The position numbers were made by a program, and so were the translations under genes. Source: a phage. From it: 44,706 nucleotides of DNA. The stretch lies in assembly GCA_021454005.1 (NCBI GenBank), contig GCA_021454005.1_3939.1. One strand, written 5' to 3'. This document shows positions 22,689 through 23,719 of this stretch, piece by piece. Positions within the stretch are counted from its first letter, which is position 1, and each line of letters begins with the position of its first letter. The notes below the pieces were generated by a model, which was not told where the DNA came from, ran no database searches, and worked only from the letters and a program-made list of their open reading frames with translations.

Positions 22689-23129
22689 TTAGAAAGGTTT
22701 TCTACGTTGCTTGTTAATGTTAGCTTTCATAGCAGCTAAATGGTTTTGCTGTTCAATTAGTCGTGAACGTTCTTGATGGCTAAGTACCATAGTGTTCACA
22801 TTCTCAATCGCTTGAGTGGCTTGCTTTAAAGCACGACCAATCTTACCAGACATTTTACGTTTTGCAATAGTTGCTTGATGCTTAGGTTCAACCACACGAT
22901 AACCAACACCCATTGAAGCAACCAGATAAATCTTCTCTTCTTTAAGAAGCTTCTCAATAAACTTCTCAAGTCGATTTAAGCGTGTAAGCGCATAAGCCTT
23001 CATTTCATCTTCGTACTTAACAATGTCACCTTGATAAGTTGGCTTCACAATACCTAAGAAGGTGTCCATCTCAGAATGTGATACAGTGTCACCGTAACTA
23101 AACTTTGCTGCTAATGCTTTTGTATTCAT
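22689..23129 (-). CDS. hypothetical protein (cassette gene 2)
   Basis: 146 aa ORF, basic C-terminus (KANINKQRRKPF); no motif recognised; between repeat arrays. Confidence 0.4.
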   Translation of the reverse strand: MNTKALAAKFSYGDTVSHSEMDTFLGIVKPTYQGDIVKYEDEMKAYALTRLNRLEKFIEKLLKEEKIYLVASMGVGYRVVEPKHQATIAKRKMSGKIGRALKQATQAIENVNTMVLSHQERSRLIEQQNHLAAMKANINKQRRKPF

Positions 23130-23131
23130 AA

Positions 23132-23719
23132 TTAAACGTTACCTTCTGAAATAACTTCTACAGAAAAACGACCAAAGCGTGGACGCCAATCACCTACACC
23201 ACAAAGGTTGCCAGCATTTTCCAGAACCATCAGAAGTTCCTCTCTGGTGATTTGCTCTTCATCGAACATCAAACCGAACTCTACAGACCAGTCACGGAAG
23301 ATTGGGCGGTAGCTCATAACTCGTGCTGTACCAATCTTAACAGACTTAGCATAGATAAAGTCTGGATTCTTAGCAAGTTCTTGTGGGTTTGCTGGACAGT
23401 TCTTGATAGTCATTGGGAAGACTACATCTGTCAGCATAATGGCTCGGTCAATTACCTTACCAAGTTTGTTAAGTTTTGCACCAGACTTGATACAAGCCTC
23501 AATCATCTCACCGTTCATAACAAAACCTAGCTGCTCATCGTAGTAACAGGAAGTTACTAGTTGGCTTTCTGCTAAGAGCGCATAGTCTTCGTCAGTCTTT
23601 TTACGTTTACTGGACAGAGACTTGTGATATTTTGTCAGAGGGTTTAATGGGTCTGACAACGTATCGTTATGGCTCAAGAAAGGACGAGTACCAGTGATTT
23701 TGATATTTAACAGTTTCAT
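23132..23719 (-). CDS. hypothetical protein (cassette gene 1)
   Basis: Start moved to ATG 23719, which has RBS GGAG 9 nt upstream (ORF-track start 23734 has none); no motif recognised. Confidence 0.4.

Follow-up and report, generated by a model that had tools for sequence, protein, structure and literature searches.

What do two adjoining phage genes without a recognisable motif do when they are the only genes between two sets of short repeats? We addressed this question for a 44,706-nt window of phage DNA (NCBI GenBank assembly GCA_021454005.1, contig GCA_021454005.1_3939.1), in which open reading frames of 195 and 146 amino acids occupy positions 22689 to 23719. The original prediction, made from the letters alone, had seen an accessory module that might serve host takeover, anti-defence or replication initiation. 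None of these functions found support. Instead, we identified an RNA-guided DNA-silencing locus of the Viral Interference Programmable Repeat (VIPR) type, with the genes vipr and vap1 and with genes for guide RNAs, called vrRNAs. The most probable reading, at roughly 0.93, is that the two-gene cassette and both sets of repeats form a single type II VIPR locus of the SUSP1 clade, with which the phage most likely silences a parasitic satellite of Escherichia coli.

VIPR was described in two preprints of 2026 from one group; a literature search returned no VIPR papers beyond these. The system consists of Vipr, a minimal RAMP protein, an accessory vap gene and vrRNAs of 9–16 YNNGG repeats with a structured 3′ tail. 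The evidence from Escherichia phage phiSUSP1 (SUSP1, KT454805) comprises small-RNA sequencing, pull-down, binding assays, green fluorescent protein and lambda assays and cryo-electron microscopy (cryo-EM); the SUSP1 arrays give rise to small RNAs that co-purify with Vipr, and the natural SUSP1 guides mostly match an E. coli satellite element (bioRxiv 10.64898/2026.04.26.720920, 10.64898/2026.04.26.720927). The SUSP1 system is classified as type II, and the paper's SUSP1-clade set holds 41 vrRNAs. Because the system has been characterised in a 97–99% identical SUSP1 locus, it is already known and not new.

Vipr is a Cas7-like protein

Both genes lie on the minus strand where the original prediction had placed them, vipr at 23132..23719 (195 amino acids from ATG) and vap1 at 22689..23129 (146 amino acids), and they are indeed the sole genes between the two repeat sets. 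The vipr stop codon TAA covers 23132–23134 and vap1 starts at 23129, leaving two bases between the genes. An alternative, longer vipr reading frame reaches a GTG at 23734; the SUSP1 annotation and the PDB chain use the ATG at 23719.

In a PDB sequence search, Vipr matched chain 36pp_D, 'SUSP1 Vipr protein' (E = 1.5e-127), and it is identical to SUSP1 Vipr at 190 of 195 positions. On this match to 36pp, we gave up three earlier candidates, namely a TRAP-like RNA sponge, G-quadruplex DNA and primase sites. The residues H17, K33, R39, E71, M72, K82, G87, K88, R138, C173, D177, W178 and R179, which according to the published structure (PDB 36pp) contact G1, G2 and Y3 of the repeat, the base that is skipped or the non-target strand, are all kept relative to SUSP1, and the 'T175' of the paper is V in both proteins.

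Neither Vipr nor Vap1 matched Pfam, NCBIfam or PADLOC, and in PHROGs both fell into families of unknown function (Vipr into phrog_4652, E = 4.9e-97; Vap1 into phrog_5926, E = 2.3e-75), so the earlier remark that no motif could be recognised was a fair one. Of the checks that had been proposed, the profile searches named no function, and structure prediction with fold-similarity searches identified Vipr as a Cas7-like RAMP protein and gave Vap1 a weak winged-helix resemblance only; as presumed, neither showed homology to housekeeping phage proteins in these searches.

The AlphaFold2 model of Vipr, built from 78 homologues, had a predicted local distance difference test (pLDDT) value of 96.0 and yielded 57 Foldseek matches in the PDB at E ≤ 0.001. 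The best 50 of these 57 are all CRISPR effector complexes or isolated Csm3. The matched chains are mostly Cas7-family backbones, namely Csm3 (III-A) and Cas7 (type VII), together with one III-B Cmr complex, and many Csm3/Cas7 chains reached a Foldseek probability of 1.00 at a template modelling (TM) score of about 0.5. We conclude that Vipr is a minimal single-RRM RAMP (Cas7-like) protein with a G-loop and a thumb. Its place among Cas7-type RAMP backbones follows from the fold; sequence-profile similarity was not detectable. From the 97–99% identity to the SUSP1 proteins, this Vipr is predicted to polymerise on vrRNA with one protomer per repeat.

The repeats encode five guide RNAs

Within the YNNGG unit, NN is the variable guide dinucleotide, and the published decoding rule skips one target nucleotide. 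Five YNNGG arrays are present in the window, all at the VIPR locus and all on the minus strand, two upstream of vipr and three downstream of vap1; no YNNGG runs were found elsewhere in the 44.7 kb. Position 1 is a pyrimidine and position 5 a G in every one of the 64 units (64/64 each), position 4 is a G in 54 of them, and positions 2 and 3 are variable. Each vrRNA comprises 11–16 guide units and then a 35-nt tail. Tandem Repeats Finder reported a 127-nt repeat period at the locus (score 323). Only these 127-nt units of pentamers and hairpins came up in the repeat searches, and an array of CRISPR repeats and spacers did not; the window also gave no matches to Rfam and no tRNAs.

The most upstream guide RNA, vrRNA-A (23948..24062, minus strand), has 16 units (24062..23983) followed by a pseudoknot tail (23982..23948) and the guide CC CG GA AG TA AT CC GT CG AA AC AC AA AA AG AT; it has no counterpart at that position in SUSP1. 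It is followed by vrRNA-B (23793..23887, minus strand; 12 units at 23887..23828, tail at 23827..23793), with the guide TT AA AA GC CC CG AA GC GA AT AA GT, which is the positional homologue of SUSP1 vrRNA1 and has the same tail sequence. Downstream of vap1, and likewise on the minus strand, vrRNA-C (22534..22628) has 12 units, the first of which (TGAGG) stems from the conserved leader, a tail at 22568..22534 and the guide (GA) AC GC TA AA CT AG AG GA TT AA GC. Next come vrRNA-D (22407..22501; 12 units, tail at 22441..22407), with the guide GA GT AC AA TA AT CA CA CA GA AA GT, and vrRNA-E (22280..22374; 12 units), with the guide AA AT AT GT TT TA AT TA GT AA AG AT and a tail at 22314..22280 with the stems AAGG/CCTT and GGCAG/CTGCC.

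The tail reads as an H-type pseudoknot of two interleaved helices, in which columns 1–4 pair with 15–18 and columns 6–13 with 26–33. Across 10 distinct tails from four phages and satellites, 85.8% of the cells are paired, and in 9 of the 12 pairs both sides have changed, with compensatory changes such as GTAG/CTAC, GTGG/CCAC and AAGG/CCTT. None of 500 shuffles reached this covariation score, and slid registers pair in 25–46%; the structure was proposed from the sequences used to test it, which makes the test somewhat favourable to it.

Repeats of this kind could also be replication-origin iterons or DNA-structure elements, with the two proteins as an origin-binding initiator pair. The strong G/C skew of the pentamers, their hairpins, the nearby DNA ligase and polymerase genes and the weak winged-helix-like fold of Vap1 would all suit such an arrangement. 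We nevertheless consider it very improbable: Vipr is a solved RNA-binding RAMP protein, the units of related phages vary exactly at NN, the SUSP1 arrays are transcribed and co-purify with Vipr, and four arrays have dinucleotides that fit a foreign element in one constant register, which would not be expected of iterons. An iteron origin in the strict sense, with near-identical iterons of ~17–22 bp, an AT-rich unwinding element and a Rep-type initiator, was rejected on the 5-nt YNNGG unit with its variable middle and on the nature of the proteins, one RAMP and one small and helical.

Four guides match an E. coli satellite element

The foreign element emerged when complete E. coli genomes were searched with the locus by blastn: the end of vrRNA-B gave a 68-nt match in 60 chromosomes. 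The match lies within an integrated element of ~11–12 kb, the satellite, whose early region occurs in 533 of 5,426 complete E. coli genomes (about a tenth). The satellite encodes a serine-type recombinase, baseplate and tape-measure proteins and small early genes, among which genes for an HNH endonuclease and a Dam-type methylase are sometimes found. Identity to the phage is 71% for the baseplate protein (against that encoded at 8637–9413 of the window) and 30% for the tape-measure protein. Several chromosomal sites are occupied (wrbA, the yecN/DUF72 region, yciI and yegS). Some copies have a 13–14-unit vrRNA of their own, with a sigma-70 promoter, a SUSP1-type pseudoknot tail and a terminator; vipr and vap1 were in none of the satellite copies examined, and the satellite vrRNA presumably borrows Vipr from the helper phage. 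The satellite's own guides find matches of up to 22/26 in other satellite variants, within the non-coding right arm.

We wrote each guide as NNxNNx... and scanned it against 15 diverse satellite copies, of an element carried by ~530 genomes; the satellite loci are L004 9716–21070 on the E. coli FY10 chromosome as well as L005–L014 and L028–L031. Guide A matched best with 30/32, its first 14 units perfect, inside the first early gene, where the skipped bases coincide with codon position 3. For guide E, 23/24 positions matched at the early promoter of the satellite (TTGACA-17-TAGTAT), where the site covers the −10 hexamer and the start region. The 30/32 site of guide A is found in E. coli strain 2017.18.04CC, and the 23/24 promoter site of guide E in strain RM9154-C1. 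The best site for guide C scored 21/22 without the leader unit (21/24 with it), 46–80 nt upstream of the structural (late) operon, and that for guide D 21/24, inside a 324-nt gene.

When the order of the units was shuffled (200 shuffles), the maxima were 19–23, and none reached the observed score for A, C, D or E. With other skip lengths, tried on one 40-kb satellite locus, guide A did not exceed 21/32, nor guides B–E 18/24. Guides of other phages served as positive controls: numbers 2 and 4 of SUSP1 and three from ASO1B matched the same small panel at 85–91%. Since four guides match the satellite under the skip rule, the published rule and the target class are reproduced with an entirely different guide set.

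These scans also bear on the idea that the locus is a VIPR system whose main job is to regulate the phage's own or host genes, as a timing switch or for host takeover. Such a role would fit the way VIPR acts, which is to repress transcription and leave the DNA uncut, as well as the promoter found among the target sites and the missing satellite target of guide B. Against this, four of the five guides converge on one element, no self-targets were found at skip 1 in the 44.7-kb window (maxima of 19/32 for guide A and 17/24 for guides B–E), and scores in the host DNA that borders the satellites, which the scanned loci included, stayed at background. The scan covered half of the phage genome and very little host sequence, and a guide B target elsewhere is possible; overall we think a regulatory main role very improbable.

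Proposed mechanism and its weak points

Our preferred reading, silencing of the satellite by VIPR, would work as has been shown for the near-identical SUSP1 system. The arrays would give rise to vrRNAs of ~100 nt. Vipr would polymerise on each vrRNA with one protomer per YNNGG unit, so that GGY is buried and the two variable bases are presented. The dinucleotides would then pair with double-stranded DNA, every third target base being skipped, and the resulting R-loop triplex would block transcription without cutting, an effect that Vap1 would increase. The four guides would act on the early promoter of the satellite, on two of its early genes, the first among them, and on the stretch that precedes the structural operon. 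Because four guides point to a satellite of ~11–12 kb with phage-related tail genes, the phage most likely silences this parasite during infection.

Several observations weigh against this interpretation. Guide B found no target in the 15 satellite loci, its best score of 18/24 being background. No guide matched the sampled satellites perfectly; the best matches are at 94–96%, and that of guide D at 88%. In the register of guide D, moreover, the skipped base does not fall on the wobble position. The mismatches in the small panel lie mostly in tail-proximal units, where assembly on double-stranded DNA appears to start according to cryo-EM, in 3′-to-5′ order; this pattern may reflect the sampling of just 15 satellite loci. 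A terminator-like hairpin splits vap1 from vrRNAs C–E, an obstacle to explaining the transcription of these three. The expression, processing and activity of the five vrRNAs would follow from SUSP1 by extrapolation, and parasitism of the satellite on this phage is suggested by the tail genes that the two share.

For guide B, we looked beyond the satellite. Its exact 12-unit pattern is absent from IMG/VR, and its 10-unit core occurs in 4 viral and 7 metagenome contigs of unrelated G+C content, in which the match does not extend into the flanking units, a chance-like distribution. Under the more speculative readings given below, the orphan guide would point to a competitor that is not yet sampled.

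Promoter, terminator and leader sequences

The original prediction had given the cassette a dedicated upstream promoter and a downstream terminator, which held in part. A sigma-70-like promoter with 11/12 consensus positions, TTGACA-16-TATACT, is located on the minus strand at 24132..24159, upstream of the upstream array and ~60 nt before vrRNA-A; directly before vipr there is only a weak 9/12 promoter-like site (23764–23735). The candidate at 24159–24132 is the likely start of a vrRNA-A/B-vipr-vap1 transcription unit. A terminator-like hairpin, AGCCTCTTCGGAGGCT, followed by a T-run is found on the minus strand at 22662..22677, between vap1 and the downstream vrRNAs, as a candidate terminator. 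In the region, 4 promoter-like sites were found against 4.5 expected from shuffles, so that they count as no more than consensus matches. SUSP1 has the same sequence for the hairpin and for both hexamers and the spacer of the strong promoter, which lies upstream of vrRNA1 there.

Expression and trimming of vrRNAs are not treated in the VIPR paper. The leaders between the vrRNAs cover 22630–22665, 22502–22540, 22375–22410, 23888–23925 and 24063–24101. Both leader types can be read as TT(T/A)AA(A/G)-N17-TTT(T/A)A(A/G), ending ~7 nt before the first repeat; on this reading, a weak promoter might drive each vrRNA separately, with no long precursor to be cut. Leaders of type 1 also contain a 10-bp hairpin, CATCACTTAA/TTAAGTGATG. 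The vrRNA leader CTTAAGAGTCTTCTAAGAGGG has two copies in the window (22510–22530 and 24076–24096), both inside the VIPR locus, and the target of guide C (L005 5625–5659) contains TTAAGTCTCTTCTAAG, which resembles it. The leader motif CTTAAGAG/TCTTCTAAG was also considered as a promoter motif used throughout the phage genome and was rejected: its complete 21-mer has just two copies, neither of them outside the locus, and short words from it are scattered.

The accessory protein Vap1

The 146-amino-acid protein is identical at 144 of 146 positions to the product of the SUSP1 gene directly downstream of vipr, which we equate with the paper's vap1 from its description of the locus. What is reported of vap1 is an enhancement of VIPR protection (bioRxiv 10.64898/2026.04.26.720920, 10.64898/2026.04.26.720927). 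Distant relatives number 235 among 1.84 billion representatives. The basic C-terminus that had been pointed out is present, as KQRRKPF. In the AlphaFold2 model (pLDDT 96.5), the predicted order is a short helix, a strand, a helix, a long helix, a beta-hairpin and two long helices; the N-terminal part appears winged-helix-like, with weak matches in fold searches (E ≥ 0.6).

Related loci and guide turnover

The window belongs to a Felixounavirus (Felix O1-like), and its region 22150–24200 is 99.6% identical to LF110P4. Altogether 239 phage records match this region, with mostly Escherichia and Salmonella as their source. Phages dune, ASO1B and SUSP1 share the arrangement of the window, both genes being annotated there as 'hypothetical protein'. 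The proposed comparison of cassette content between relatives supported the linkage: SUSP1, dune, ASO1B and two distant metagenomic loci keep arrays together with vipr and a downstream gene, and, among the phages and satellites examined, arrays without the cassette occur only in the satellite. In one metagenomic contig, a 44%-identical vipr overlaps a 36%-identical vap1, and three YNNGG arrays follow downstream; the other has a 49%-identical vipr, an overlapping gene for 166 amino acids without a blastp match to Vap1, and two arrays. The order is kept in both.

This bears on a further explanation, by which the proteins are an anti-defence or toxin-like module independent of the repeats, and the repeats are insulating terminators or promoters. 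Promoter-like and terminator-like sites do flank the genes, and the proteins have no annotated domain in the three profile collections named above. We give this view next to no credence, since the linkage of genes and arrays persists at 44–49% Vipr identity in unrelated metagenomic contigs, the published GGY-contact residues are conserved, and satellites carry a vrRNA without the genes, an arrangement that would make little sense unless the RNA were the functional partner of a protein supplied in trans. Of the original idea of an independent module, the self-contained accessory unit tied to the repeats stands, and the bracketing regulatory elements have become guide RNA genes of the VIPR system.

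Comparison of the VIPR arrays between related phages showed that NN differs, and GGY and tails are kept. The numbers of vrRNAs upstream and downstream are 2+3 in dune and 2+2 in ASO1B. In dune (L001 1926–1985), guide C is identical and its neighbouring guides differ. ASO1B (L002 1666–1740) has guide D in altered form: one Y is changed silently, unit 6 reads AG for AT, as it does in the satellites, and three different units stand in place of the last one, making it two units longer. The dune guide C and the ASO1B variant of guide D suggest both that whole units are exchanged and that point changes follow the target. Further hints come from related phages with 4 or 5 vrRNAs and from satellites with a single vrRNA and a SUSP1-type tail. 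We tentatively propose, at clearly less than even odds, that guides turn over without Cas1-like machinery, by exchange of vrRNA units via leader and tail and by point changes at NN that track satellite escape. Weaker than this is the possibility that Vap1 may recognise a leader-like motif, such as that in the target of guide C upstream of the satellite's structural operon.

The surroundings of the locus

The neighbours of vipr and vap1 are a DNA ligase gene on one side and a gene for a small secreted protein on the other. An exact 19-nt direct repeat on the plus strand, AAAGATTCTTCAGAGATTG, flanks the entire VIPR locus at 22018–22036 and 24461–24479. The copies fall in an open reading frame of 127 amino acids (21807..22190) and in the DNA ligase gene, respectively, and they share their reading frame, each coding for ISEES. 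The two copies are kept in dune and ASO1B with 0–2 mismatches; the first 50 kb of SUSP1 have the ligase copy only. The repeat may serve recombination, by which the locus would be gained or lost, or it may be coincidental and due to the shared peptide. Elsewhere in the window, a short CAG/24-nt tandem repeat (8104–8151), downstream of the part of the tape-measure gene that matches the satellite's, is probably an ordinary coding repeat.

Comparison with known systems

With the class 1 CRISPR proteins of the Cas7 family (Csm3 of III-A, Cas7 of type VII, Cmr4), Vipr shares the RAMP fold with RRM core, glycine-rich loop and thumb. As in Cas7 backbones, each protomer covers an RNA stretch of constant length, and bases of the guide–target duplex are flipped out by the thumb. 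VIPR differs in its period of 5 nt, of which 3 are buried, so that 2 of every 3 target bases are read. It also differs in being phage-encoded, in using a single protein species of 195 amino acids and in silencing without cleaving, with no Cas1/Cas2, Cas6 or nuclease. We found none of cas1, cas2, cas6 or a gene for an effector nuclease or large subunit at the two-gene locus, to which the search for cas genes was confined. A gapped dinucleotide code is thus read by a filament of one 195-amino-acid Cas7-like protein, and VIPR has been proposed to be older than CRISPR.

The lytic Vibrio phage ICP1 directs a complete CRISPR-Cas system of type I-F, which includes adaptation and degrades DNA, against the PLE satellite. 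In both phages, an RNA-guided system has guides that match a chromosomal satellite, a parasite of ICP1 and probably also of the phage studied here; unlike that of ICP1, the VIPR locus is without cas genes, spacer-acquisition machinery and nuclease. In a Pseudomonas fulva prophage, VIPR guides hit lysis-lysogeny regulators of resident prophages (bioRxiv 10.64898/2026.04.26.720920, 10.64898/2026.04.26.720927). Compared by description only, that system and ours have in common vipr, vap1 and GGY/NN vrRNAs, recognition through an R-loop triplex and mobile elements as targets, and they differ in host and targets.

To the VIPR principle itself the window adds little; it provides an independent, fully computational replication on a different phage, with a five-guide locus and a concrete target map on the E. 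coli satellite. The locus could help to settle the role of Vap1, the production of vrRNAs, the origin of new guides and the target of guide B. For therapy or typing with Felix O1-like phages, it means a programmable anti-satellite weapon that differs from phage to phage.

The closest known system is that of SUSP1. SUSP1, a Suspvirus, has four vrRNAs (1+3), and the Felixounavirus studied here has five (2+3), the extra one being the 16-unit vrRNA-A. All guide sequences differ, and SUSP1 has been characterised experimentally, whereas the present system is known from its sequence. The two loci agree in gene order, strand and the ligase and secreted-protein neighbours, in the upstream promoter, the leader hairpins, the terminator hairpin, the tail pseudoknots and the YNNGG unit, and in the class of their target, the E. 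coli satellite.

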